From an uncultured Candidatus Saccharibacteria bacterium (GTDB lineage Bacteria > Patescibacteriota > Minisyncoccia > Minisyncoccales > UBA5738), in NCBI GenBank assembly GCA_964523275.1, contig CAZFZI010000001.1, positions 7,214 to 46,947 of the forward strand: a DNA stretch of 39,734 nt, given 5' to 3'. Below, one piece after another: positions 1 through 12,303 of the stretch. Position 1 is the first letter of the stretch, and the number at the start of each line of letters is the position of its first letter. The notes under the pieces were generated by a model. It made no database searches and was not told the DNA's origin. It worked only from the letters and a program-made list of their open reading frames with translations. The position numbers and the translations under genes are program-made.

Positions 1-130
1 AATAGGCAATGCGCCCCGTTATTGCCGCAGTCTTGCCCGTGCCCGCGCCCGCCACGATTAACAATGGCCCCTCTTTATGCGTTACCGCCTTTTTCTGTTC
101 CTTATTCAGTTTTTTCAAATCCAATGCCAT
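1..130 (-). CDS. UvrD/PcrA-family SF1 DNA helicase, N-terminal fragment (gene continues past window start)
   Basis: Reverse translation from ATG at 128-130 reads [43 protein letters not shown]. LNxEQxxAV followed by GAGTGKT is the classic UvrD/PcrA/Rep Q-motif plus Walker A opening. Absent from the ORF track because it is truncated. Confidence 0.75.
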
Positions 131-188
131 TTCAATACAAATGTTTTTAATCGCCAATTTTGCATTTTAGCGCAAAATCAAAATAATT

Positions 189-221
189 AAAAACGTCCCT
201 TGATATTCTTGGGGCGTTTTT
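189..221 (-). terminator. Hairpin downstream of iscU (AAAAACGTCCC / GGGGCGTTTTT), possible bidirectional terminator
   Basis: 10-11 bp stem with one mismatch/wobble, 11-nt loop, A/T runs on both sides. Lies about 75 nt after the iscU stop at 297-299. Confidence 0.4.
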
Positions 222-296
222 ACATTTGCATTTTGATTTTTTAATTTTTAAATTTGGAATTTTGACATTTATTTGTCATTGGAAATTGGAAATTGG

Positions 297-884
297 TCAT
301 TTCCCGTGGATTTCCTCTTCCCTTGCCACCCAATCTTTGTATTTTTCCTCAACAATATCTTTTTCTTTTTTGATGCGCCGATGTTTCTCCTCCAGCTCTT
401 TGGGAATCGCGCGGCTTTGTTTGGCATAATAATCATAAACCGCCTCCACCAACGCATCCGCCGCCAGCACCGAGCAATGCAACTTTATCGGCGGCAAGCC
501 GCCCAAACTTTGCACAATTTCTTGTTTATCAATGGCAATCGCGTCTTCCAACGTCTTTCCCTTGGCCAAATCCGTGATCGCGCTGGAAGTGGCGATCGCC
601 GCCACGCATCCAAATGTTTCAAACTTGATATCTTTGATTATTTCTTTTCCTGCTTTGTTTTTAGCAACTTTTACATACAGCCACATTACATCGCCACAAA
701 CAAGGTTACCCACCTTACCGACACCATCGGGGTTTTTCATTTTGCCATAGTTGTGGGGTTTGGAAAAATGTTCCATCACTGTTGATGTGTATGGACCGCT
801 GGCCGCGGTTCTGCCCTTTGGGCAAACTCCGCACTTGGGCCGGCAAACCGGCGATTTTTTTGTTTTCGATAGAGTTTTTTTCAT
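297..884 (-). CDS. iscU: Fe-S cluster assembly scaffold IscU/NifU-like, with N- and C-terminal extensions
   Basis: VMEHFSKPHNYGKM...GNLVCGDVMWLYV...GCVAAIATSSAITDL...LPPIKLHCSVLAADAL are the three conserved Cys motifs of IscU. ATG at 882-884. Directly downstream of the cysteine desulfurase. Confidence 0.9.
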   Translation of the reverse strand: MKKTLSKTKKSPVCRPKCGVCPKGRTAASGPYTSTVMEHFSKPHNYGKMKNPDGVGKVGNLVCGDVMWLYVKVAKNKAGKEIIKDIKFETFGCVAAIATSSAITDLAKGKTLEDAIAIDKQEIVQSLGGLPPIKLHCSVLAADALVEAVYDYYAKQSRAIPKELEEKHRRIKKEKDIVEEKYKDWVAREEEIHGK

Positions 885-902
885 TGTCTAAAATTCAAAT
901 TT

Positions 903-953
903 GCCAAGGTCGCACCTCTGCTTCGCTCCGCTACGCCGAGGAACGACCTTTGG
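903..953 (-). repeat. Imperfect palindromic element, copy A (GCCAAGGTCGCACCTC...GAGGAACGACCTTTGG)
   Basis: Arms AAGGTCG/CGACCTT and CCTC/GAGG. Begins 4 nt after the iscS stop (957-959). A near-identical copy lies at 20001-20044. Confidence 0.7.
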
Positions 954-956
954 AGT

Positions 957-2177
957 TCAATTGATTTTAAAGGGGGAAATTTCGCGCAATCGCTGAATAA
1001 TTTTGGGCAGAATTTTCAGCACATAATCAACATCGCTTGCCTTGGTCCAGCGGCCGATGGAAAGGCGCAAAGATCCGTGCGCTTCTTGGGGTTTCAACCC
1101 GATGGCGGTTAACACATGGCTGGCAGTGAGTTTTGCCGAAGAGCAAGCCGAACCGGTGGACGCGGCAATCCCGTTAATGTCCAATTGAATAATCATTGAC
1201 TCGCCCTCAACATAATCAAAACGCGCATTAACATTATTGGGCAATCTTTTTTGCGGATGACCGTTTAAATAAGAATGGCTGATGTTTTTCAAAATACCGG
1301 AAATTAATTTATCGCGCAGTTTTATCTGGCGCGCGAATTCCTTTGCCATCTCTTTTTTGGCAATCAACGCGGCCTGGGCAAATCCATAAATCGCCGGCAC
1401 ATTGACCGTGGAAGAACGCAATCCCGATTCCTGGCCACCGCCGTGCAATATCGGCTCAATTTTCGTTCCTTCTTTTATATACAGACATGCCGCGCCTTTG
1501 GGGCCATAAATTTTTTGCGAACTGACAGTGAGCAAATCAACATTCATTTTGACAACATCAATGGGAATTTTGCCGAAACTTTGCGCCGCGTCAGTGTGAA
1601 AATACACGCCTTTTTGCCGGCAAATCTTGCCGATTTCTTCAATCGGCTCAATTGTGCCGATTTCGTTGTTGGCATGCATCACCGACACCAAAACCGTGTC
1701 CGGTCGAATTGCCGCGGCAACATCCGCGGGATTGACCATGCCATATCCATCAACTTTCAAGCGTGTTACCTCAAAACCTTGACGTTCCAGCCACACCGCG
1801 CTTTCCATCACGCAGGCATGCTCAATGGGCGAAATGATCAAATGCTTGCCCCTATCTTTGTTACCGAACATAACGCCCTTTATCGCCAAGTTGTTGCTCT
1901 CGGTTGCCGAACCCGTAAAAACAATTTCTTTTGGATTCGCATTAATAATGCCGGCAATATCCGCGCGGCTTTGCTCCAAAATGCCGCGCGCGTCCTGGCC
2001 AAAAGAATGAAATGACATTGAATTGGCAAAAAATTCCGGCAAATTATCGGCTGTCTTTTTTGCCACCCGCGGATCCACCGGCGTGGCGGCGGCATAGTCC
2101 ATATATATCCGCTTTGGCTGTGCCGGTTTTACGTATTTTCTTTTTTTGGAAATAATTTTTTTAGCCATAATTTTCAT
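957..2177 (-). CDS. iscS: Cysteine desulfurase (IscS/NifS class V aminotransferase)
   Basis: DYAAATPVDPRV, SVMHANNEIGT, SSQKIYGPKG (PLP lysine) and STGSACSS (catalytic Cys loop). The ORF-track start at 2207 is TTG; first ATGs are at 2177 and 2168, so the start is uncertain by about 30 nt. Confidence 0.92.
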   Translation of the reverse strand: MKIMAKKIISKKRKYVKPAQPKRIYMDYAAATPVDPRVAKKTADNLPEFFANSMSFHSFGQDARGILEQSRADIAGIINANPKEIVFTGSATESNNLAIKGVMFGNKDRGKHLIISPIEHACVMESAVWLERQGFEVTRLKVDGYGMVNPADVAAAIRPDTVLVSVMHANNEIGTIEPIEEIGKICRQKGVYFHTDAAQSFGKIPIDVVKMNVDLLTVSSQKIYGPKGAACLYIKEGTKIEPILHGGGQESGLRSSTVNVPAIYGFAQAALIAKKEMAKEFARQIKLRDKLISGILKNISHSYLNGHPQKRLPNNVNARFDYVEGESMIIQLDINGIAASTGSACSSAKLTASHVLTAIGLKPQEAHGSLRLSIGRWTKASDVDYVLKILPKIIQRLREISPFKIN

Positions 2178-2308
2178 AAATCCAAAACTCCAATTTCTAA
2201 ATCCCAAACAAATCCAAATATCAAAATTATAAATTCAAAACAAAATGCTATCCATTTTAATTTTTAATATTTAAATTTTGAATTTATTTAGAGTTTAGGA
2301 TTTAGTGC

Positions 2309-2713
2309 TTAGAATTTTTTATTGATGAGGTCTTCCAAAGTAACCGATGCCAAAAAGTCGTCTATCGCGGCCTGCATTTTCACCCACAAACATCTGGTCA
2401 AACAGCCGTGCTCGCGAGCGCATTCGGCATCAATGCATTTAACCTTGGTTAAGGAGTTTTCCAACGTGGAAAAAATTTCGGAAATTTTTATTTCATTGGC
2501 CGGACGAATCATAATATAACCGCCGCGCACTCCTTTTTTTGCCGCAAGCATTTTGGCTTTCAAGAGTTTGGCAAATATTTTTTCCAAATAATCGCCGGGA
2601 ATTTTTTCGCGAATGGCAATTTCGCGCACCGATATGGCGCGATTATCTTTTGAGTTTTGCGCCAAATAGGCCATTGCCCGCAACCCATACTGCACTTTGG
2701 TGGAAATCTTCAT
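2309..2713 (-). CDS. iscR: Rrf2-family transcriptional regulator (IscR-like)
   Basis: MKISTKVQYGLRAMAYLA...ISVREIA winged-helix N-terminus typical of Rrf2, and a C-terminal Cys cluster CIDAECAREHGCLTRC. ATG at 2711-2713 (track start 2725 is TTG). Heads the iscS-iscU genes. Confidence 0.85.
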   Translation of the reverse strand: MKISTKVQYGLRAMAYLAQNSKDNRAISVREIAIREKIPGDYLEKIFAKLLKAKMLAAKKGVRGGYIMIRPANEIKISEIFSTLENSLTKVKCIDAECAREHGCLTRCLWVKMQAAIDDFLASVTLEDLINKKF

Positions 2714-2752
2714 AATTAAAATCAACTTTCAAAGCATCTTTGCAAAACATCC

Positions 2753-2780
2753 AAAAAAGCCGACCTTATTGGTCGGCTTT
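2753..2780 (-). terminator. Rho-independent terminator after the 2828-3970 gene
   Basis: GCCGACC-TTATT-GGTCGGC stem-loop. On the minus strand it is followed by a T6 run. Confidence 0.7.
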
Positions 2781-2827
2781 AATATACCAAATCCTTTCCC
2801 CTTTTGTCAAATACCGCCGCAATCCAT

Positions 2828-3970
2828 TCAAACAGCCGGAGTTTTTTTGAACAAATAGCGCAACCCGCCCAATCCCCAAACAAGAGCCGCGCCCGAGAAC
2901 AGCCATCCAATCACCGGTAAGGCAAAGATTGTCCAGCACAGAATAATTCCAATCGTTGCTTGCCAATAAAATGAAATTTGCCGGTTTTTGAAAAATCTGT
3001 CACCGATCATTTCGCCGATGGCAATTGCCGCCAATATGCGCGCGCTAAAAAGCGCGGCGATATACAGCAAAAGCGCGATTATCGCCAGCGGAATACCAAT
3101 GATGGTTAAAAATGTCGCGATAATGGCAACCGGACCGGCAATCAATATCAGCAAACCCCAACCAAGGGTTCTTCCGGATCTGGCTCTCATCGCCATAATT
3201 AATTTTTGAATAAATCGTTTAAAGAAAAAAATCAGAATCAAGGCAACCGCCAAATTCAATGCCAACCCTTTCAATTTGCCTGCAATTTTATCTTGCGGCG
3301 TTTCTTCTTCGGCAAGAATTTTTGCGGCAATATCCCGCCGCGGCGGTTCTTGGCGCGCAATGCCCGCGCCAACACCAAATCCTTCCTCACGCACCGCCTC
3401 CTTATCGCTGGCATAAACCAACGTTCCATTGACCGCCGCGCCGTTTTTGAGTGTTAAATTATTGTTCTGAAATTGAGCATCACCACCGATGACCCCGGCG
3501 ATTGTGATTGATTGGCCCGCGCCAACAACGCTCTTTTCAATTTTACCGCCGATTATCGCCTTCTGCGCACCGAAAAGCATTTCTCCGGCGATTACCGAAT
3601 CGGTTGACACCGTTTGGCCCGCCACAGTGATATTTCTGCCCACCGATCCGTTTATTTTCACAGTCTGCCCGACAACGCGCACGCTTCCGGTTACGGATCC
3701 GGCAATCATTATATTCTGACCGGCGCATAAAACATCGCCGTCAACATTTCCATTGATATCAATATTCTGCCCGGCGCAAATTATATCGCCTTTCACATCG
3801 CCATCAATCATAATTGATTGACCCGTGGCCAGCAAAGTTTCATTGATCGTTTCGCCCTTCGGGATGTTTATTTCATCGCCGCTTTTTATCATAAACGCCT
3901 GCGCGCTTTGACAAAAACCAAACATCATAACCACGATTGTCGCGTATGAAAACAATTTTTTAAAATTCAT
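2828..3970 (-). CDS. Membrane protein: signal peptide, bactofilin-like beta-helical repeat region, multi-TM C-terminus
   Basis: N-terminal MNFKKLFSYATIVVMMFGFCQSAQA. Repeats GDVKGDIICAGQNIDINGNVDGDVLCAGQNIMIAGSVTGSVRVVGQTVKINGSV resemble polymer-forming cytoskeletal (bactofilin/CcmA-type) repeats. The last about 150 aa are hydrophobic helices. ATG at 3968-3970. Confidence 0.7.
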   Translation of the reverse strand: MNFKKLFSYATIVVMMFGFCQSAQAFMIKSGDEINIPKGETINETLLATGQSIMIDGDVKGDIICAGQNIDINGNVDGDVLCAGQNIMIAGSVTGSVRVVGQTVKINGSVGRNITVAGQTVSTDSVIAGEMLFGAQKAIIGGKIEKSVVGAGQSITIAGVIGGDAQFQNNNLTLKNGAAVNGTLVYASDKEAVREEGFGVGAGIARQEPPRRDIAAKILAEEETPQDKIAGKLKGLALNLAVALILIFFFKRFIQKLIMAMRARSGRTLGWGLLILIAGPVAIIATFLTIIGIPLAIIALLLYIAALFSARILAAIAIGEMIGDRFFKNRQISFYWQATIGIILCWTIFALPVIGWLFSGAALVWGLGGLRYLFKKTPAV

Positions 3971-4121
3971 ATTGTTTGCGTTATTTTTTTAATTTTGAAA
4001 AATGCGCCTTAATTATCTTTTTTCTCCGAATTTATTTAAAAAAACCATTCCCTTTCGCCACCATAGCACTCACGCACCACCATAACTTCCAGGAATGGGA
4101 ACAACTATTTATTCAAGCAAG

Positions 4122-4592
4122 TCAGGAGGGAAAAAATACTGCCAGATGTCTTAAGGCCATATTCAGGGACGACCAACCAGGAGCAATTATATCTGCGTAG
4201 ACACCATTGATATAGATATAATAATCGTCTTCTTTTTTTCTAATATCAATATCAATAGTTTCTCCGTTGGCAAGGAGCATTTTTGCTTCCCAGCGATTAT
4301 TTTCCACAATCATATCCAAAGATCCTAAAATTTCTTCCAATGTGGAAATGTGGAAATTGAGAACACAGAAACTAGGATTAATATCGTACCCCCGATGGAA
4401 TAAAATCTCTGCATAAAAAACCTTCTCAATAATCTTTCTTCCATCCTTTTCAATAGGAATTTCGACAGCAACCACCGCTTTTGCGCCTTCTTGGTGCTGA
4501 CCAATAAGCGTAATATCCACAACTCGTTGCCATCCTCGTCCATACAATACCATACGAGATAGATTTTCATCATCTCTATTGCTACCTCGCAT
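4122..4592 (-). CDS. Hypothetical protein (156 aa), orphan
   Basis: ATG at 4590-4592 preceded by AGGAGGC 8 nt upstream and a consensus-like promoter. No family recognised from the sequence. Confidence 0.6.
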   Translation of the reverse strand: MRGSNRDDENLSRMVLYGRGWQRVVDITLIGQHQEGAKAVVAVEIPIEKDGRKIIEKVFYAEILFHRGYDINPSFCVLNFHISTLEEILGSLDMIVENNRWEAKMLLANGETIDIDIRKKEDDYYIYINGVYADIIAPGWSSLNMALRHLAVFFPS

Positions 4593-4629
4593 TTCTTTAA
4601 GCCTCCTGTAAATAGTTACTCATACTTGA

Positions 4630-4658
4630 ATAATAAAATAAACAAAAAAAATTGTCAA
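4630..4658 (-). promoter_or_regulatory. Sigma70-like promoter for the 4122-4592 gene
   Basis: Minus strand reads TTGACA (4653-4658), a 17-nt spacer, then TATTAT (4630-4635). Confidence 0.5.
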
Positions 4659-4680
4659 GAAAATTTAGGTTAATCAAGCG

Positions 4681-5385
4681 TTATTTTAGCTCCAAATAGT
4701 ATTTTCTTTTTTGTTCGTCAAAATGTTCAATGGCATAGCGCAGTGTCACTCGCGGCATTATTTTGTAATGTTTTTTCAAAAACTCCTCTTCAACTTCCCG
4801 GCCGCAGTTCTTACCGATTTCGCGCAACATCCAGCCAACCGCTTTGTGGATCAAATCCTCCTTGTCGCCAAGCAACACCTCCGCGATTTCCAACGCAATA
4901 CGGCAATCGCCATTCCTAATGAAGCAAAAAGTTGACAGCATCGCGATACGCCGCTCCCACAAGCTTTTTGACTTTGCCAGTTTGAAAAGAATTGCTTTAT
5001 CCTTGCCTTCCAAATACGTGCCGACAATATGCGGCGCGGAAATGTCAACCAAATCCCAATTGTTAATGAATTTGGTATTGGCTAAATATAAATCAAAAAT
5101 CTCATTTTTTTCTTTGCCATTGGCTTTTTGAAATTTGGCAATCAAAATCAGCAAAGCACTCATGCGTTCTTCGTGATACATGCTTTTCAGCAAAACTGCC
5201 GCCGCGCGGGTTGAAAAATCTTTCCAGTATTTTTTTACTAAGCGGCGCTGGTCCGGCATAGTTATACCCAAAAACTTGTCGCCCTCGGCATATTCGCCTT
5301 TGCCGGTTTTGAAATATCTTTGCAAAACTTCGGCCTTTTGGGGATCAGCCAATTGCCGCAATTCTTTTCTTAGTTTTTCAATCAT
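4681..5385 (-). CDS. DNA alkylation repair protein (AlkD/AlkC-like HEAT-repeat family)
   Basis: LRKELRQLADPQKAEVLQRYFKTGKGEYAEGDKFLGITMPDQRRLVKKY and WMLREIGK are characteristic of the DNA_alkylation family. ATG at 5383-5385. Confidence 0.75.
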   Translation of the reverse strand: MIEKLRKELRQLADPQKAEVLQRYFKTGKGEYAEGDKFLGITMPDQRRLVKKYWKDFSTRAAAVLLKSMYHEERMSALLILIAKFQKANGKEKNEIFDLYLANTKFINNWDLVDISAPHIVGTYLEGKDKAILFKLAKSKSLWERRIAMLSTFCFIRNGDCRIALEIAEVLLGDKEDLIHKAVGWMLREIGKNCGREVEEEFLKKHYKIMPRVTLRYAIEHFDEQKRKYYLELK

Positions 5386-6169
5386 TGTTTATCAGCATTA
5401 GAAGATCTTTTATCTGTTTTGAGGCGTTTTTCCGTCCGGCATCGGCAATTTCATCCATTTTCAAAAAATCAAACCAATGAAACCTTCCGCCGCGGGGCTT
5501 AAAGCAAAAATCGCACTGCCTTTCTTCAAACGCCGCCAGATCTCTTTCAAAGATATTCAGCGCGCGCGCCGCGACTTCAAAACGGTTCATCTTTCCCGCG
5601 ACCGCGCCATCAATTTTGTCAATTGAATAAATTGACGACCCGATAACAAAATCCGCGCCCATCGCGCGGGTTTCTTCGGCGGGCAAATTTCGGGTTACGC
5701 CTCCGTCAATATAGAATTTTCCGCCGAAATTTTGAGCCAAAAACACGCCCGGATAGGCCGATGACGCCATCACCGCCGCCAAAGGATCGCCGGAACTGAA
5801 AACTTCTTTTTGGCCGGTTGCCAAATTGGTGGCACAACATGAAAACGGAATCTCCATATCGCTAAATCTTTTTTGGCCAATCAATTTGCCCAAAACTTTT
5901 TCCATATATTTGATCACCCCGCCAACGCCGCCGGAAACGAGATATTTGTTTTTTTTGAAAAATTTCAGATTTATTTCGTCATAAAAGCACCGCACCGCGG
6001 CCAATCCGCCGGATGCATACACCAAGCCGATAATCGCTCCCGCGGAAACCCCGCAAACGCAATCAATTTTGATTTTTGATTTTTCCAACTCCTCAATCAC
6101 GCCGATATGCGCCGCGCCCATCGCGCCCCCGCCCGAAAGCGCCAACCCGATTTTTTTGTTTTTAGCCAT
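5378..6169 (-). CDS. Patatin-like phospholipase
   Basis: GLALSGGGAMGAAHIGVIEEL (oxyanion GGG), GVSAGAIIG (GxSxG nucleophile) and YIDGGV (catalytic Asp). Overlaps the downstream gene by 8 nt. Confidence 0.85.
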   Translation of the reverse strand: MAKNKKIGLALSGGGAMGAAHIGVIEELEKSKIKIDCVCGVSAGAIIGLVYASGGLAAVRCFYDEINLKFFKKNKYLVSGGVGGVIKYMEKVLGKLIGQKRFSDMEIPFSCCATNLATGQKEVFSSGDPLAAVMASSAYPGVFLAQNFGGKFYIDGGVTRNLPAEETRAMGADFVIGSSIYSIDKIDGAVAGKMNRFEVAARALNIFERDLAAFEERQCDFCFKPRGGRFHWFDFLKMDEIADAGRKNASKQIKDLLMLINND

Positions 6170-6454
6170 AAATTATTTTAAAAACCAGAGTTGACATCAT
6201 TTTTCGTAATTCAATGTCCGCCACTTTCCATGGATAGATTAAATTAAGCAATTGTTCATAATATGAAAGCGAGGTTTGTTGATTTTTCATATGCTTTCCA
6301 GCATATCCCAACCCGCCCCTTATGCCAACCTACCCACAGAATTGTCCGAAGAACCATATTGAAAATTACCAAACAAATGGCAACAATCAGCGATGTTTTG
6401 CCGCTCCGTGCCAATTTGCGAATGTTTTTGTCCTCAATTTTTCTGTTCATATTC

Positions 6455-6490
6455 AAATACGTATTTAAATACGTATTTAAATATATACTT
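6455..6490. repeat. Three tandem 12-bp units: AAATACGTATTT x2 (each a perfect palindrome) plus AAATATATACTT
   Basis: Read directly at 6455-6466, 6467-6478 and 6479-6490. Ends 5 nt upstream of a minus-strand ATG at 6448-6450 and overlaps the 3' end of the 6495-6677 ORF region. Confidence 0.8.
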
Positions 6491-6494
6491 AAAT

Positions 6495-6677
6495 CTACAA
6501 TTTTATTTTCCCCAAATCCCAAGCGGTGATCAACCCCAAAATCCCTTCCCCCTCTTTTCCGTTTTGGATAACAAACAAAACCCCCAACCGCTTCCCATCT
6601 TTAATAAAATCACCAAATTTTTCTTTTATTTCCAACGCATCCATATCCCTTGGGGCAAGCCAGTAAAAATTGTCCAT
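6495..6677 (-). CDS. Small protein resembling a single CBS domain (60 aa)
   Basis: LAPRDMDALEIKEKFGDFIKDGKRLGVLFVIQNGKEGEGILGLITAWDL has the beta-alpha-beta-beta layout and the GxIT..DL ending of CBS domains. First ATG is at 6675-6677. The call is weak. Confidence 0.3.
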   Translation of the reverse strand: MDNFYWLAPRDMDALEIKEKFGDFIKDGKRLGVLFVIQNGKEGEGILGLITAWDLGKIKL

Positions 6678-6900
6678 CCGCAAGAATTCTGACCCATTAC
6701 GATCAAATTCGTCACCTGTTTTAAAATTATTTATGTTTTTTATTCTTGCGAATATTGTTTACCCACCTGACATTATGCGTTGGCGGATTTGCGCCAATTT
6801 TCCTTTCCGAAATCACCGTATTGGGCGATTTTTTATCAGTTCCCCAATATTCTTTGTGCGGTTGATTAACTTTTGCCATAATTTTTTCAAAATTCGGCGC

Positions 6901-6932
6901 GTATATACTTATGTATATACAAGAGTATATAC
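6901..6932. repeat. Three copies of the palindrome GTATATAC at 12-bp spacing
   Basis: GTATATAC at 6901-6908, 6913-6920 and 6925-6932, separated by 4-nt spacers. About 22 nt upstream of a possible minus-strand small ORF (ATG at 6877-6879). Confidence 0.8.
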
Positions 6933-7008
6933 ACCTCGGAAATTTTTTTCTTTAAAAAACCAAAACTGACACCATTTTGCACCATTTTGCATTTCGACGA
7001 TTAGCGAT

Positions 7009-7671
7009 TTATTTAATTTGAACTGCTCGAGGATCAAAGACAACGCTATAAAATAATAACTTTCCAAAAAATTCTAATCCCCAAATTGATTGAAAAGTTT
7101 TTGGTTCCCAATTATACCCAAAAATAAAAATATTTTTCTGAATAACTTTCCACTTTAATTGTTTCAAAAAAGGCATAAATGTTGCTATTGATTTATTGGT
7201 AATTAAAACATGTTTAATAAACCAATTTCGTGGCAAAATCATTTTAAATTCATTAAAAAATAATCCTTTTATATATTTATCCAAAATTTTATCAATTCTT
7301 TTGTAGTCTAATTCAACGGCAGTTTTTTTGCCTAAAAAAATTCCACCATTAGAATACGAATTAACCAACGACATTTGACTAAACATTTTTTGTGCCAATG
7401 AAGGGCTTCGTCTTAGAGATCGTGATACTGTTGTGTTAAAAAGACAATTCGCTGTTAAAGAGTCAGTCAATAATAATCCACTAACCAAATTTCTGAAATA
7501 ATCTTCATCCCTTGAGAAACCCTCATTGCATTCTAAACAACTCTGTACCTTAATCGGATTTAAATTAATACTTACTCCTTTATACAAATTCTTTGATGGA
7601 ATATGATCCATGTTTTCTGCGACTCCGCCACAATAGACACATTTATTAAATTGTTGATTTCTATTTTCCAT
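7009..7671 (-). CDS. HNH-motif nuclease-like protein (220 aa) with an uncharacterised C-terminal domain
   Basis: N-terminus CVYCGGVAENMDHIPSKNLY...NLNPIKVQSCLECNEGF matches CxxC...DH...N...CxxCN, the zinc-ribbon HNH signature. ATG at 7669-7671. AT-rich. Confidence 0.75.
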   Translation of the reverse strand: MENRNQQFNKCVYCGGVAENMDHIPSKNLYKGVSINLNPIKVQSCLECNEGFSRDEDYFRNLVSGLLLTDSLTANCLFNTTVSRSLRRSPSLAQKMFSQMSLVNSYSNGGIFLGKKTAVELDYKRIDKILDKYIKGLFFNEFKMILPRNWFIKHVLITNKSIATFMPFLKQLKWKVIQKNIFIFGYNWEPKTFQSIWGLEFFGKLLFYSVVFDPRAVQIK

Positions 7672-7719
7672 TTTTTAATTTGGTTTTGCTATAAACAACC
7701 TCGCAAAATATTAGATTTT

Positions 7720-7886
7720 TTATTTCTCCACGATTTCTATCTCCCCGGGCGTTAATCCGTAAAGCTGATAAACCATTTGATCAATTTGCTTTTCGTATTC
7801 TTTGACTTTGGCCTGCTTGGCAGGATTTTCCAAATAATCGTCGGATCCGGTAATCGCCAAAATTTTATCAACAATTTCAATAAATA
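7720..7886 (-). pseudogene. Start-less C-terminal remnant of a TaqI_C/Eco57I-type restriction-modification enzyme (copy A)
   Basis: Frame reads FIEIVDKILAITGSDDYLENPAKQAKVKEYEKQIDQMVYQLYGLTPGEIEIVEK-stop. The frame is closed by a stop at 7924-7926 and has no usable start. The remnant begins 1 nt after the helicase stop codon. Confidence 0.7.
7757..7885. repeat. 129-nt direct repeat, left copy (partner 9644-9772)
   Basis: Hand alignment gives 123/129 identical with no indels. The last 43 nt are identical. Confidence 0.9.
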
Positions 7887-9539
7887 TTACGGGGTTTGAT
7901 CTTGTTTTTCCAAAAAATAATTTTTATCAATTCGAATTTTATCTATACTGCCCTTGTTTATCCACCTAATAAATTCAGATGGTTTCATTGGTTTTCCTGC
8001 GAAGCGATAAGTCCAAAGAATATAACATTGTTTTCGCGTGCGTGTTAATGCTACCAAGAATCTGAAAATTTCCAATTCCTTTATGTGATCCGGGTCATTG
8101 GGAATGTCGCCATTGTGCAATCCAACAATAAATACAAATTGAGCCGAAAGACCTTTGGCGCCCTCATAAGAAGTTAGTTTTATAGTCGGCTGCCCTTGTG
8201 GAACTTGGTTTGTAGCAATTTCTTCTGGTTTTACCCAATTATTAGCTTCCAAAAGCAAAGCATCTCTGTAGCTTTCTTCTATTTCTCCAAATAAAGGCTT
8301 TTGATATTTCGCTGCTTTTTCCAGCGCACCTTGAGAGAAGTCTGGATTATCGGCTTCTATGGCAATACGCCACCCCACATTGGACTTCGAGTCTTCTTTA
8401 AGGTAGGGCAACGCCATTGAGTGCGTTATTGTGGAAGATTCTTTCCCGCCTTCATGGTAATCAATTATAAATCCTGCATCTCGTAGGTATTTAGCAATTT
8501 GTGATAAATACTGCTTTGGTCCAACTATTAATGCCGTAGGAAAATTTTCTTGAATTGACTCGATTATGTATTTCCGCGGAATTTTTTTAATTATATCGGC
8601 TATAATTTTCCCAAAATAATTTGTTTTTAGCTGTTGAGCTGAAATTTCCAGCACCTTAATTCTTGGATGCACTAAGCTGTCTTGTTCCCTATAAGGTTCA
8701 AAATATTTGTACGGCTTATCTATACGGCCTGGTAAAAGTTTTTTATATTGCGCGACCATTACTATGTCAGCAAAGGAGTCCACGATAACTTTGGGACATC
8801 GAAGGCAAAATGGCAATTCACAATTCTCATATTCATCGCCTCGATACAAACGGCGAATAAATTCATAACTGGAACCACGAAGTTGACTATAAAGAGCCTG
8901 GTCATCGTCTCCAGCAACAGCGATAGAATTATTTTCGCTTAAAAGATTCAGCAAACTCACTTCAAGCCGGTTGAAATCTTGATATTCATCAACCAAGATG
9001 AGCATATATTTTGGAATTTTAACGCGCCCGCAAAAATAAGCAGAATAAACTCTGAAAATTGAATCATCAAATCCAACAGTATCATAATAATTAGAACGCG
9101 ATAGATAAAATTCAGATTGTGCATCTTCTATGGTACTGCGCATATTTCCCACAAATTGAGGAGCATTCTTCCCATATAAAATTTCCCAATCCTTTTTTAT
9201 CAAAGTTGGTAAATAGGGAAATATCTTAAATGTTTCTGACAACCCCGTCCGCAGATGAGGATTTTCATGTAATAATTTTACGCAATAACCATGAAATGTA
9301 AAAACTTGGGCAAGGCGAGAAAGTTTTTCACATAGTTCGTCCTTTAAATTATTTATAAAAGTCAAAACCAGCTGATTCCTTTCTCCATTGTCATTTTTTT
9401 CGAGTAATTTTTTGAATAGCGTTGTTTTTCCAGCTCCGGGACCCGCCAATATTACTTTTTTGGGACGATCCGAATTAACAATTTTTTCAATTGCAGATGC
9501 AAGCTCCTTCTTTAATTTATTCGAGTTAGTTTCGGGCAT
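7887..9539 (-). CDS. Compact UvrD-like SF1 helicase/ATPase (550 aa)
   Basis: Motif I ILAGPGAGKTT, motif II LILVDEYQDFN, motif III VAGDDDQALY, motif V-like TSYEGAKGLSAQFVFIVG, motif VI VALTRTRKQCYIL. ATG at 9537-9539. AT-rich. Confidence 0.88.
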   Translation of the reverse strand: MPETNSNKLKKELASAIEKIVNSDRPKKVILAGPGAGKTTLFKKLLEKNDNGERNQLVLTFINNLKDELCEKLSRLAQVFTFHGYCVKLLHENPHLRTGLSETFKIFPYLPTLIKKDWEILYGKNAPQFVGNMRSTIEDAQSEFYLSRSNYYDTVGFDDSIFRVYSAYFCGRVKIPKYMLILVDEYQDFNRLEVSLLNLLSENNSIAVAGDDDQALYSQLRGSSYEFIRRLYRGDEYENCELPFCLRCPKVIVDSFADIVMVAQYKKLLPGRIDKPYKYFEPYREQDSLVHPRIKVLEISAQQLKTNYFGKIIADIIKKIPRKYIIESIQENFPTALIVGPKQYLSQIAKYLRDAGFIIDYHEGGKESSTITHSMALPYLKEDSKSNVGWRIAIEADNPDFSQGALEKAAKYQKPLFGEIEESYRDALLLEANNWVKPEEIATNQVPQGQPTIKLTSYEGAKGLSAQFVFIVGLHNGDIPNDPDHIKELEIFRFLVALTRTRKQCYILWTYRFAGKPMKPSEFIRWINKGSIDKIRIDKNYFLEKQDQTP

Positions 9540-9600
9540 AATCGTTCGTTATTCCGAGTTTCAGTGATTTTGAATTTTATTTTTTCCTGAAATATTTCAA

Positions 9601-9954
9601 CTATTTTTGTTTCTCAACAATTTTTGTCTCCTCTGGTGTAAGGCCGTAAAGCTGATAAACCATTTGGTCAATTTGGTTTTCGTATTCTTTTACTTTGGCC
9701 TGTTTGGCGGGATTTTCCAAATAATCGCCGGATCCGGTAATCGCCAAAATTTTATCAACAATTTCAATAAATGGTTTTTGTTGCTTTACGGTCGCAATTT
9801 TGATAGACATTTGCTTTGCATTGTCAGGATAAAAATGAATTTTTCCCGATAAAAAATAATTAAAATACCAACTTATTATTTTTAAATTTAATATCGTCAA
9901 CAAAAAATTATAATCATAGTTTTTTTCCGTTTCCAATTTCTTTGTTTTCTTCAA
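9601..9954 (-). pseudogene. Truncated C-terminal fragment of a TaqI_C/Eco57I-type (type IIG / PglX-like) restriction-modification enzyme (copy B)
   Basis: NFLLTILNLKIISWYFNYF and ILAITGSGDYLENPAKQAKVKEYENQIDQMVYQLYGLTPEETKIVE are typical of the specificity-domain tail of these roughly 1000-aa enzymes. Only 117 codons are open, the track start is TTG, and a stop lies at 9964-9966. Confidence 0.65.
9644..9772. repeat. 129-nt direct repeat, right copy (partner 7757-7885)
   Basis: See the left copy. The offset between copies is 1887 bp. Confidence 0.9.
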
Positions 9955-10088
9955 TTTCCTCCATCAGATCGTTATTCATAATCAATTAGTATTTTACATA
10001 GAAACGCGCTCGCAATGCCATACTTCACTATAATGTACCTTTTTTGAACCGCTTTTTCAATCACCAAGCTATAACCCAGCATAACATA

Positions 10089-10117
10089 TTGACTTAATCG
10101 GGTGAAAGGTGTATCTA
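10089..10117 (+). promoter_or_regulatory. Candidate promoter of the tetR-efflux operon
   Basis: TTGACT (10089-10094), a 17-nt spacer, then TATCTA (10112-10117). Confidence 0.4.
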
Positions 10118-10125
10118 TTTGATTG

Positions 10126-10147
10126 TTGCCTACCGAACGGTAGGTAA
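10126..10147 (+). promoter_or_regulatory. Palindromic operator candidate TTGCCTACCGAACGGTAGGTAA
   Basis: Perfect core CCTACCG-AA-CGGTAGG (10129-10144). Lies between the candidate -10 and the tetR ATG at 10184. Confidence 0.55.
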
Positions 10148-10183
10148 GCAATTGCCAATGATCATTTATTAATTATTAAAATA

Positions 10184-10744
10184 ATGGAAACTCAAAACCG
10201 CAGGGTTGAAATTATTCGGGCGGCCAAGAAGTTATTCGCGAAAAACGGTTATTCGCCCACTTCCATGGATGACATCGCGAAAAACGTGGGCATTGCCAAA
10301 CCTTCGCTTTATTATTTTTTCAAAAGCAAGGAAGAAATTTTCGCGGCAATCGTGGAAGAAGTAATCATTGAATTAAGAAATTATTTGTCTGCGGAATTGA
10401 AAATTTGCAAATCGGGAAAAAACGAGCTGGCCGAAATGATCAACCGCACCATTTCCATCTGTCTGAAAAACGGAATCGTTTTGCGGCCGGTGGATATCAA
10501 AATGGCCAATATTCACCCGATAATTTTTGGCAAAATACTGCCGATGCTGGCTGAAATAAAAAATAATTTGCGGCAGACGCTGGCCTGTTACGGCGTGAAC
10601 GAAAGCGGGCTGGCCGCCGAAGTGCTGGTCAATTCCGTGCACGCATACGTTCTCCAGCACAAACACGGCATCAAGATCGCGCCCCAAAAACAATACGGCG
10701 AATATCTGGCATCATTATTCATCAAAAATCAAAAACAACTATGA
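10184..10744 (+). CDS. TetR/AcrR-family transcriptional regulator
   Basis: RRVEIIRAAKKLFAKNGYSPTSMDDIAKNVGIAKPSLYYFFKSKEEIF is the canonical TetR HTH. The stop overlaps the next start (ATGA). Confidence 0.9.
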   Translation: METQNRRVEIIRAAKKLFAKNGYSPTSMDDIAKNVGIAKPSLYYFFKSKEEIFAAIVEEVIIELRNYLSAELKICKSGKNELAEMINRTISICLKNGIVLRPVDIKMANIHPIIFGKILPMLAEIKNNLRQTLACYGVNESGLAAEVLVNSVHAYVLQHKHGIKIAPQKQYGEYLASLFIKNQKQL

Positions 10745-12303
10745 ACCTCATCCACTTTCTCAAACATCATAAATTGGGCGCGATATTCATAATTGCCGCC
10801 ATCGCAATAATTTTCGGCGCCGGCGCGGCGCGGATAAACAATCAAAATCAAGCGCAAACAACAGAACAAACGCCATCGGTATCGCTGATTTTGGCAAGCG
10901 ACTATTTGGCGCAAAACACCGTCAGTCTTGACAGCGGCACGGTGCAATCAGCAAAACAAACCAGTCTGAAAGCGCAAATTAGCGCGCAGATTGTTTCAAT
11001 TAACGCCAATCTGGGAGACAATGTGAGCGCCGGCCAAACAATCGCCAAATTGCAAGACCGCGATATTGCCGCGCAATCGGACCAAGCGCGGGCGCGCTTG
11101 GAAGAATTGGAAAAAGGCGCGCGGCCGCAAGATATTCAACTTTCCCAAACTTCAAGTGAAGAAGCAAAATCCGCGCTGATTAACTCCATCAAAGACGCTT
11201 ATGCAAAAGCTGATGACGCGATACACAATCATATTGATAAATTTTTTGCCAATCCTCGGCAAAGTTCGGCTGAATTTTTAATTTCAATCAATGTAAGCGG
11301 CACACGAGTTGATATTTATCCGGTCAATGGCGAGCTGGCGCGCCGGGCCGCCAGCCAAAAATACGCGCTGGAATCAATGTTTTCCGAATGGCAAAAAACA
11401 ATAAGCACAGTTGTCAGCAACACCGGCCAAAACGAAATTGAAACCGCGGGAAATCTATCCAAAAAAAACTTGCAAACTGTTATTGATTTTGCAAACACAA
11501 TGGCGCCACTGGTCAATGATCTTTCCAGCGACAACGCCGCCTACAAACAGATTATTGACGGATACAAATCCGAATTTTCGGCGGCCCGATCAACCGCGAG
11601 CGGCGCCCTAAATTCCTTGCAAGGCGCGCAAACCGCATGGCTTGCGGCCAGAAACGCCCTGGAGTTCAAACTTGCCGGCGCCAGCGATGAGCAAATCCGG
11701 CAAGCTCGGGCCGCGGTTGAAGCACTTCAAGCGGCATTGGCAAAAACCGCGATCATCGCGCCGATTTCCGGTAAAATTTCTTATATTGCCGGCAATATCG
11801 GCGAACTGGCAATGCCCGGCCAACTCATCGCCAGCATCGTCAATCCAACAGCGTTGCAAGTGAAAACCTATGCTTCGGAAATTGACCTGCCGCGAATCAC
11901 AATCGGCGATTATGCCGAAATTGACGGCGGCGCTCAAGGCACCGTGAGCAATATATCTCCGGCAATTGACCCGCAAACCAAGAAAATAGAAGTGATTATC
12001 GCAATCACAAAAAACGCTCCCAATCCGATTGTTATCGGACAAAACGTAAGCGTTAAAATCAACGCCAAAAACACAGGTTCAGCCGGCGCCAAATATTTGC
12101 TCCCGATACAAGCGATTCAATTTACCGACAACGGCAATTACGCGCTTTTCGTTGAGAAAAACCTCATAACGCGGATTTCGGTGCAAACCGGCGAGCTCAT
12201 CGGCGAAAATATTCAAATTACCGGCGGCTTAGACGCGGAAACAAAAATCGTTTCTTCGGTGCGAGGGCTAAAAGAAGGAGATTCCGTCACAATACAAGAA
12301 TAA
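10741..12303 (+). CDS. Efflux periplasmic adaptor (HlyD/MFP family)
   Basis: N-terminal TM, lipoyl-like ISAQIVSINANLGDNVSAGQTIAKL, long coiled-coil, and APISGKISYIAGNIGE beta-barrel segment. Located between tetR and the RND pump. Confidence 0.85.
   Translation: MNLIHFLKHHKLGAIFIIAAIAIIFGAGAARINNQNQAQTTEQTPSVSLILASDYLAQNTVSLDSGTVQSAKQTSLKAQISAQIVSINANLGDNVSAGQTIAKLQDRDIAAQSDQARARLEELEKGARPQDIQLSQTSSEEAKSALINSIKDAYAKADDAIHNHIDKFFANPRQSSAEFLISINVSGTRVDIYPVNGELARRAASQKYALESMFSEWQKTISTVVSNTGQNEIETAGNLSKKNLQTVIDFANTMAPLVNDLSSDNAAYKQIIDGYKSEFSAARSTASGALNSLQGAQTAWLAARNALEFKLAGASDEQIRQARAAVEALQAALAKTAIIAPISGKISYIAGNIGELAMPGQLIASIVNPTALQVKTYASEIDLPRITIGDYAEIDGGAQGTVSNISPAIDPQTKKIEVIIAITKNAPNPIVIGQNVSVKINAKNTGSAGAKYLLPIQAIQFTDNGNYALFVEKNLITRISVQTGELIGENIQITGGLDAETKIVSSVRGLKEGDSVTIQE

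Follow-up and report, generated by a model that had tools for sequence, protein, structure and literature searches.

The window analysed here is a stretch of 39,734 nucleotides (nt) from an uncultured Candidatus Saccharibacteria bacterium (contig CAZFZI010000001.1, positions 7,214 to 46,947), in which the gene of a UvrD/GajB-like superfamily-1 helicase stands between two direct repeats. The repeats resemble the 3' ends of type IIG restriction-modification (RM) genes. We examined them, the island of genes around them and their counterparts in other genomes, and the locus would fairly probably have been built by stacking defence genes behind the conserved tail of such RM genes.

The repeat pair and the genes around it

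A repeat search over positions 6000-12000 detected a single family of direct repeats, 7717-7885 and 9604-9772. The copies are 169 nt long, 90% identical without gaps, start 1887 nt apart and are the only two present in the genome (0.83 Mb in 108 contigs). Their 129-nt core (7757-7885 and 9644-9772) has 6 mismatches (95.3% identity); the preliminary description, which had reported 129-nt direct repeats with 6 differences and no indels, was thus borne out by the repeat search and the alignment. The 36 nt following the core are just 69% identical between the copies. The main features of the region, in coordinates of the window, are the following:

9601-9954, minus strand: right tail fragment R, predicted 3' remnant of a type IIG gene, with the specificity-domain end and the conserved tail, a 117-codon open frame; repeat copy at 9604-9772
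9643-9646, minus strand: candidate recombination breakpoint inside R, at tail position 127-130, from the informative-site analysis
9540-9600, minus strand: 61-nt spacer from the R stop to the helicase start, nearly identical to the spacer of contig L014 in alignments
7887-9539, minus strand: UvrD/GajB-like superfamily-1 helicase, 550 amino acids (aa), intact; Pfam UvrD-helicase and AAA_19, GajB models with E = 1e-23
7881-7889, minus strand: putative illegitimate junction at the helicase stop; the stretch homologous to L014 reaches 7881, the repeat beginning at 7885
7720-7885, minus strand: left tail stub L, 55 codons and a stop, with no gene body upstream; repeat copy at 7717-7885
7009-7671, minus strand: 220-aa protein with an HNH-like N-terminus, second cargo gene; weak PADLOC PDC-M01B and PtuB matches at residues 8-51
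6727-6988, minus strand: block D, right-hand border of the cargo slot, from homology to G003:C56 and L207
6170-10077, no strand: the whole predicted inserted island, from the drop in GC content and from flanking genes that are adjacent in same-genus genomes
9907-9936, minus strand: match to a sigma-70-like promoter, TTGGAA-18-TATAAT, upstream of R, helicase, L and HNH gene; a consensus match only

A 48-nt spacer separates L from the 220-aa HNH-like gene. Promoter-like sites in the region are no more numerous than in shuffles and none was found inside either repeat copy. No integrase or transposase domain was detected among the island genes scanned, and the island contains no Rfam match above noise and no tRNA. 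The earlier view that the repeats are not the footprint of a transposition is supported. As had been stated, the left copy begins 1 nt past the helicase stop (TAA at 7889-7887, copy from 7885). The distance of 61 nt given for the right copy holds for the stop codon of the R frame (9601-9603; helicase ATG at 9539) but not for the 129-nt core, which ends 104 nt before the helicase start.

Translated from the minus strand, both copies give ...FIEIVDKILAITGS(G/D)DYLENPAKQAKVKEYE(N/K)QIDQMVYQLYGLTP... The R fragment matches positions 1137-1246 of the 1247 positions of the PADLOC REase_MTase_IIG model (E = 4.6e-12) and L matches positions 1200-1244 of the 1247 of the type IIG model (E = 2.1e-7). Both also align with the last positions of PDLC03612 and PDLC03596, so that the conserved C-terminal tail following the specificity domain is present, and with the ends of the 1181-aa L014 gene and the 1179-aa L137 gene. 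A Pfam scan of R and L (frames of 117 and 55 codons) returned no domain, hence no methyltransferase domain (Eco57I or N6_Mtase), which is present in the related full-length genes. Because they align only with the ends and lack the methyltransferase domain, the fragments are regarded as remnants and not as members of the type IIG enzymes: judged from their sequences, both copies are C-terminal remnants of type IIG RM genes whose body is gone. The PADLOC C-terminal matches confirm the former assignment of the repeats to tails of TaqI_C/Eco57I-type RM genes. The search for a full-length RM gene with this tail, recommended at that time, came out negative for the genome's own assembly, where no intact gene with this tail was found and where neither copy belongs to a full-length gene.

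Two other contig ends of the same genome were noted. At G000:C70:1-1020 (minus strand) an Eco57I-type methyltransferase gene is cut by the contig end, with the TaqI_C-like region just beginning (...IADIHYGIAT); it ends about 150-200 codons short of any tail, no contig end matches the island, and an intact relative with an unassembled 3' end may exist in this genome. At G000:C98:1-70 an Illumina-adapter-like sequence (GATTGGAAGAGCGTC...AGATCTCGGTGGTCGCCG) is joined to an HsdM-like gene; this end of the contig is likely chimeric.

The repeat pair does not result from an assembly artefact. The same structure is present in contigs of at least 8 samples, wherever these contigs span the repeats; matching contigs came from JGI 3300028169 and 3300005645, from ERZ27248885, ERZ27248922, ERZ27248936 and ERZ27248965 and from SRR8437278 and SRR8437245. 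The two JGI samples and several ERZ272488xx/489xx assemblies exhibit the identical arrangement at 99.9-100% identity, with no difference inside the island. The longest exact block common to both copies is 44 nt, well below k = 141, and Logan k = 31 contigs start at window position 7871, the exact place predicted from this block. MEGAHIT k141 contigs obtained from other samples (ENA) cross both copies, which rules against the artefact that the preliminary description had put forward as a possible refutation. It had also proposed that the 1887-bp helicase unit could be deleted or circularised, with presence or absence at the population level. This was not observed: none of the 11 contigs carrying the HNH gene has a single-tail deletion, a presence/absence form or a circular form, and all agree with the window. 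Likewise, the R-frame protein cluster contains just start-site variants of the same sequence and no single-tail allele. The locus is apparently a fixed, decayed example of a recurrent process.

Origin of the two copies, of the cargo and of the island

The helicase has 94% aa identity to P0004, whose gene follows a type IIG gene of 1181 aa at a distance of 67 nt. On the contigs carrying the closest helicases (L014-L020), type IIG gene, tail, spacer and helicase are found together (93.8% nt identity); in L014-type contigs the RM gene is preceded by an HKD-SNF2 gene, and relaxase and TraG-like genes lie downstream. The nt homology between the window and L014 runs from 9804 to 7881 at 93.8%, from the RM gene end through the helicase, and stops 6 nt past the helicase stop. 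As this conjugative-element contig has type IIG gene, spacer and helicase at 94% nt identity, we assign R to the helicase: R would be the leftover of the RM gene that normally precedes this helicase directly and whose body was lost at the edge of the island. The upstream part of R is 78% identical in aa to L042. In L207, whose helicase is 92% identical in aa, a tail end, 31 nt, the helicase and a DUF559-like gene are followed by a block 80% identical to window 6988-6839. The stub link of the cargo genes is not general, being seen for L014, L207 and the window only; no RM tail was found upstream of the other helicase homologues (L021, L200-L204), and the plasmid collection gave only remote helicase matches (25-30%).

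Two of these distant helicase relatives (L021 and L200, 74-76% aa identity) belong to elements with a large serine recombinase and methyltransferases and no tail stub nearby; the L021 element also has an SNF2 helicase and the L200 element a DEAD-box helicase. Gabija, composed of GajA and GajB, was considered and rejected for the window helicase: its matches to GajB are partial (E = 1e-23) and the island has no GajA-like gene, the neighbours of the helicase being the stubs and the HNH-like protein.

The two copies were then compared with related tails. Over tail positions 1-127, R is 95.3% identical to L, 94.6% to the L044 stub, 94.6% to the L046 stub and 85% to the L014 tail, whereas over positions 130-165 its identity is 92% with L014 and 69% with L. 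The best breakpoint falls at 127-130, with informative sites distributed 18:5 on its near side and 1:9 beyond it (Fisher p = 4e-4 for the best of about 32 cut points). R is interpreted as a recombinant, with sequence of the stub family 5' of 127-130 and sequence of the helicase-linked L014 family 3' of it.

L, for its part, is 90% identical in nt to the L044 stub and 87% to the G003 stub. Among the six core differences, 4 are private to L and 2 correspond to polymorphisms common to other stubs; R and L alone share GGATCC at tail position 38-43. Synonymous changes account for 10 of the 16 differing codons (5 of 7 in the core), for a neutral expectation of 20-27% (P between 0.0006 and 0.015). 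This predominance suggests that the copies diverged under protein-level selection, as the ends of working genes, and not after an in-place duplication. The copies probably correspond to two non-sister alleles. The label of gene-tail duplications initially given to them is accordingly probably inexact, as they look like two alleles both by their identities (95.3% for R and L, 94.6% for R and L044 or L046) and by their shared polymorphisms.

At the other end of the helicase unit, the window reads TATTTATTGAA... past the helicase stop and L014 reads AATTTACGGAG..., while the tail begins ...CATTTATTGAA; ATTTA is common to both partners. The L207 sequence after the helicase stop was also compared at this junction. 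In these alignments the join at the helicase stop appears illegitimate and not homologous. Hence the initial proposal of a recombination between RM genes, with the tail as a homology arm, stands only in part: it agrees with the homologous exchange in R at 127-130 and with the recurrent stubs found elsewhere, but not with the illegitimate junction.

The HNH-like protein has only 4 distant homologues, none of which adjoins an RM tail or this helicase. On its far side, block D comprises three GTATATAC palindromes, spaced in a 12-nt register, together with the beginning of a basic open reading frame (ORF) of 50 aa. Block D is 88.6% identical to G003:C56 and 80% identical to L207 (a biogas-fermenter contig), the homology beginning at the same point in both. 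It may represent a promoter-operator followed by a small gene closing the cargo slot. In G003, which belongs to the same genus, a tail stub is followed by an unrelated 433-aa gene and then by block D. In L046, related to G003, the order is tail stub, 370-aa gene, Abi_alpha gene and then a small-ORF element. This comparison of the locus in relatives, suggested beforehand, thus retrieved other cargo after the same tail, in a slot closed by the same downstream block. Since different cargo is found between the same tail and block D, the tail and D would delimit a slot, and that of the window contains two units of cargo. The helicase and the HNH gene lie side by side as a chance result of stacking and do not form a conserved two-gene system.

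A multi-copy element of about 180-260 nt was also noticed at window 6388-6649 (minus strand). It contains the end of a small CBS-like ORF (...DGKRLGVLFV.QNGK.GEGILG.ITAWDLGKIK*), then a ATTTAAATACGTATTTAAATA palindrome block and the start of an AbrB-like ORF (MNRK.EDKNIRKLAKSGKTSL). Copies are located at G000:C29:6138-6247, in L044 (3 copies), L046 (3 copies) and G003:C56 (2 copies), and in most genomes of the genus. In L044 and L046 it stands between single genes, like a second kind of cassette spacer.

The island as a whole (6170-10077, 3.9 kb) has a GC content of 34%, versus 43.6% for the genome, and is flanked by a patatin gene on one side and a tetR-HlyD-RND operon on the other. In five same-genus genomes (G002, G004, G005, G009 and G011) the patatin-tetR distance is 56-335 nt, which corresponds to an empty site where the whole island is absent, tails included. 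The homology to G011 extends to window 10078, and the right edge of the island cuts the R gene fragment. At the same site G012 (L040, G012:C46:1545-7030) carries a different RM island of about 5 kb, with a C5-methyltransferase, a 345-aa ORF, a Vsr-like ORF and a 476-aa ORF, a putative restriction enzyme being also named (all names assigned by eye), and G010 carries an insert of about 1 kb. The empty sites and the different RM island of G012 indicate an insertion at a local hotspot for RM genes, and the island would have been acquired horizontally at this hotspot.

Tail stubs at other loci

Two scans with the R fragment recovered 143 non-redundant loci. At least two tails were present in 30 of them, and the extra copies were all on the same strand (43/43), the usual order being a gene of at least 1000 aa followed by stubs of 23-90 codons. 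In L094, for instance, a 1066-aa gene is followed by three units made of a small ORF and a stub, the stubs beginning 0-8 nt past the ORF stops. One unit, consisting of a stub, a 188-aa ORF and a stub, is common to L094 and L123 (74% nt identity over 767 nt). The architecture of the window, with a stub, a UvrD helicase and a stub, is found again in L106, whose helicase is just 29% identical to that of the window. In an unselected set of 400 Patescibacteria genomes, stubs represented 8-9 of the 40 tail hits; two of these, in G245 and G448, follow a full-length gene at a distance of about 700 nt and in the same orientation. As same-strand stubs bracketing cargo are common behind full-length type IIG genes, the conserved tail is considered to serve as a recurrent homology arm, a role that these arrangements point to. 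In the literature we found no description of type IIG gene tails as an anchor, nor of the stub pattern behind them.

Two explanations for the stubs were tried and rejected. Frameshifted full genes were considered as the source of the orphan stubs; about 10 with enough upstream sequence, including L044, L046 and G003, show no homology to an RM body. In the 4.5 kb searched upstream of orphan stubs, about 12 do have such homology. A function of the tail at the DNA or RNA level was considered as well; where distant full-length genes have the same residue, the fraction of identical codons is 0.43 for the tail and 0.42 for the body, and the negative Rfam, tRNA and promoter results given above bear on the same point.

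Other arrangements were observed in more remote organisms. L144, on a 2.9-Mb contig of a Planctomycetota metagenome-assembled genome (MAG), exhibits within positions 1-8700 an Eco57I-type body of 817 aa without tail, an AAA_13 ATPase of 794 aa and a 50-codon stub, then a 218-aa ORF and a 208-aa PD-(D/E)xK-like ORF ending in the same tail, for a total of 5 tail copies in 6 kb. In two Bacteroidota-type loci (L111 1094-1770 and L113 4669-5147) a stub directly follows a putative REP-associated (IS200/Y1-type) transposase, recognised by eye from MKYNPDIHHRRSIRLQGYDY...

Assembly of the locus and comparison with known systems

With moderate confidence, we propose that two cargo units were stacked in one slot of a defence island by a tail-anchored process resembling Rhs C-terminal displacement. 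Foreign defence genes would repeatedly be spliced in at the end of an RM gene by ordinary recombination, leaving a pattern found behind about one fifth of type IIG genes in other bacteria. In the window this would have involved one homologous crossover inside the tail, at position 127-130, and one illegitimate join at the helicase stop, with ATTTA in both partners. Two routes can be envisaged. In route (a), a circle made of the helicase and one tail would enter a resident tail in Campbell fashion by a single crossover near position 128; the resident tail would have been R 1-128 with L 129-169, and the incoming DNA would have brought R 129-169, the spacer, the helicase and L 1-128. In route (b), a linear fragment would be anchored by homology on one side (the tail or D) and joined illegitimately on the other, as for a fragment carrying stub, HNH gene and D that would have its anchor in D and be attached after the helicase. 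Both routes take two events, and the present data do not discriminate between them. The stubs would be footprints and substrates of recombination and not working genes, with no recombinase involved or needed.

Several points weigh against this proposal. L014, 94% identical, is a mere stand-in for the donor, which makes the 5-nt ATTTA microhomology weak evidence. The allele and breakpoint signal is carried by only 129 + 36 nt. No relative was found with the putative precursor (upstream part of R, single tail and HNH gene) or with a cassette circle, so that we infer the direction and the order of events. The 143 loci were fetched with tail motifs, which may inflate the multi-copy counts but not the orientation bias; the census of 400 genomes was unselected. 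Finally, RecA gave no match in the genome's own assembly (96.5% complete, 108 contigs); it is present in 13 of 14 family relatives, and its absence is probably an assembly gap.

A wider version of tail-anchored stacking was also considered and is, taken as a whole, only tentative and on balance doubtful. The 3' tail of type IIG genes would be a recombinase-free docking site across phyla, and single-gene defence cassettes would each carry a stub after their stop. Recombination between stubs would release them as circles, and a single homologous crossover would insert them into any compatible RM tail. Arrays would then grow beside the RM gene as integron arrays do at attI, the 1887-bp helicase unit being one cassette.

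Among the alternatives, the decay of two neighbouring systems survives best, although we hold it unlikely. A pair of type IIG-1 and helicase and a pair of type IIG-2 and HNH would have been reduced by two deletions, one that began just past the helicase and ended in the tail of gene 2 and one that took away the body of gene 1, so that the tails played no part in the assembly. Such a history agrees with copies that look like separate alleles diverged under selection, with the loss of both RM bodies in a small genome (0.83 Mb) and with an illegitimate junction, as expected of a deletion end. A downstream RM gene is moreover plausible, since in L021 the helicase relative is followed by an SNF2 gene and a large methyltransferase. 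However, the crossover in R at 127-130 is left unexplained, and the HNH homologues found elsewhere are never RM-linked. The stub-after-stop anatomy is also found downstream of intact genes at many loci that are unrelated, with strictly co-oriented stubs of only 23-60 codons. Decay would there require many near-total deletions, each sparing the neighbour genes.

An insertion with long target duplication in situ seems improbable. According to this explanation the helicase unit entered a single tail, of which 129-169 nt were duplicated and later diverged. The 4.7% divergence of the copies equals their divergence from stubs in other metagenomes, 2 of the 6 differences are shared polymorphisms, and mostly synonymous differences are not expected of stubs drifting after a duplication. 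Moreover, the last 36 nt differ by 31% and come from different tail families, and no empty-site allele was found in the same-genus genomes, the protein cluster or the 11 contigs. These results outweigh the GGATCC unique to R and L at tail position 38-43 and the fit to insertions described in Furuta et al. 2010 (PMC2853133), in which long direct repeats flank a unit and span a stop codon with no mobility gene.

The retention of the stubs for a function, either as small proteins docking onto a methyltransferase or as expression signals for the gene behind, is very improbable. The mostly synonymous differences would fit it, as would the stubs lying directly upstream of cargo genes and the existence of complete small proteins with the same tail, such as the 208-aa PD-(D/E)xK-like ORF of L144. 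But a credible start codon is lacking in L, in-frame stops interrupt the G003 copy and internal stops occur in several stubs of other loci. Stubs differ in length (23 to 90 codons), a promoter-like site is absent from both copies, and synonymous sites of distant full-length genes are no more conserved in the tail than in the body (0.43 versus 0.42). Last, a duplicated or chimeric contig join has virtually no chance of being the explanation, as only the fragmentation of the MAG (108 contigs) speaks for it, against the identical arrangement in the JGI and ERZ assemblies and copies that have at most 44 exact bases in common for k = 141.

Defence islands are known mosaics, in which the entry and exit of single genes without an integrase are mostly unexplained. 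Here the seams would be visible, one as a crossover mapped within the conserved tail of a gene and the other, at a stop codon, as an illegitimate join. The same scars lie behind about one fifth of the related RM genes sampled, always in one orientation. If this is general, the tails of type IIG genes would be a predictable place to look for new defence genes, and the stubs would record the order in which defence genes were acquired.

Tail-anchored stacking can be compared with four described processes. For Rhs tips, a circle with Campbell integration was proposed by Jackson et al. 2009 (PMC2935791), and for T6SS (type VI secretion system) effector arrays, one-sided homologous anchoring with an illegitimate join was proposed by Kirchberger et al. 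2017 (PMC5361080). In the Rhs, CdiA and T6SS displacements, as proposed here, a conserved piece of a large gene is the homology anchor for incoming DNA, which supplies a new module on the downstream side. The previous module is displaced downstream and retains a variable-length fragment of the conserved piece, and same-strand repeats bracket the newcomers with no dedicated recombinase. Both the variable-length fragments (stubs of 23-90 codons) and the units shared between arrays (the L094/L123 unit) have counterparts in our loci. The anchor gene is truncated to 117 codons in the window, while the full pattern is found in L094, L123, L125, L108, L155, G245 and G448. Unlike in the Rhs-type systems, the anchor is the extreme 3' tail of an RM gene and not a toxin core, and the cargo consists of separate whole genes (helicase, HNH, Abi, AAA_13 and unknowns) and not of alternative C-terminal tips with immunity genes.

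Insertion with long target duplication at RM loci (Nobusato et al. 2000, as related in Furuta, Abe and Kobayashi 2010, PMC2853133) is known from Helicobacter and others. In that account, direct repeats of tens to hundreds of bases flank a defence unit, often span a stop codon and come with no mobility gene, as here. Its repeats of more than 30 bp with no mobile-element gene are matched by the 169 nt of the window. In contrast with its single copy at the empty site, the empty same-genus sites have no tails, and instead of an insert with R and M homologues the window has one UvrD-like helicase gene. Its repeats are copies of one target, whereas those of the window are RM gene tails that look like two alleles.

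Homology-facilitated illegitimate recombination (de Vries and Wackernagel 2002 and Prudhomme et al. 2002, both cited in PMC5361080; PMC3240628 for E. coli conjugation) combines one homologous junction with an illegitimate one at a few shared bases, as would be the case here, ATTTA being seen only against a 94%-identical stand-in. It was demonstrated experimentally in naturally competent species and in E. coli conjugation, the present organism being a member of the Candidate Phyla Radiation (CPR). Its classical outcome, unlike the present one, is a deletion of recipient DNA and not a stacking of units. Integron cassette arrays (attI/attC, IntI) share with the window single-gene units with a short recombination element after the stop, one orientation and a fixed site. 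They differ by their integrase, absent from the island, and by their folded attC, replaced here by coding sequence of the anchor gene on which general homologous recombination would act. The anatomy of the locus thus resembles several described processes, and what would be new is the use of a type IIG tail as the anchor.

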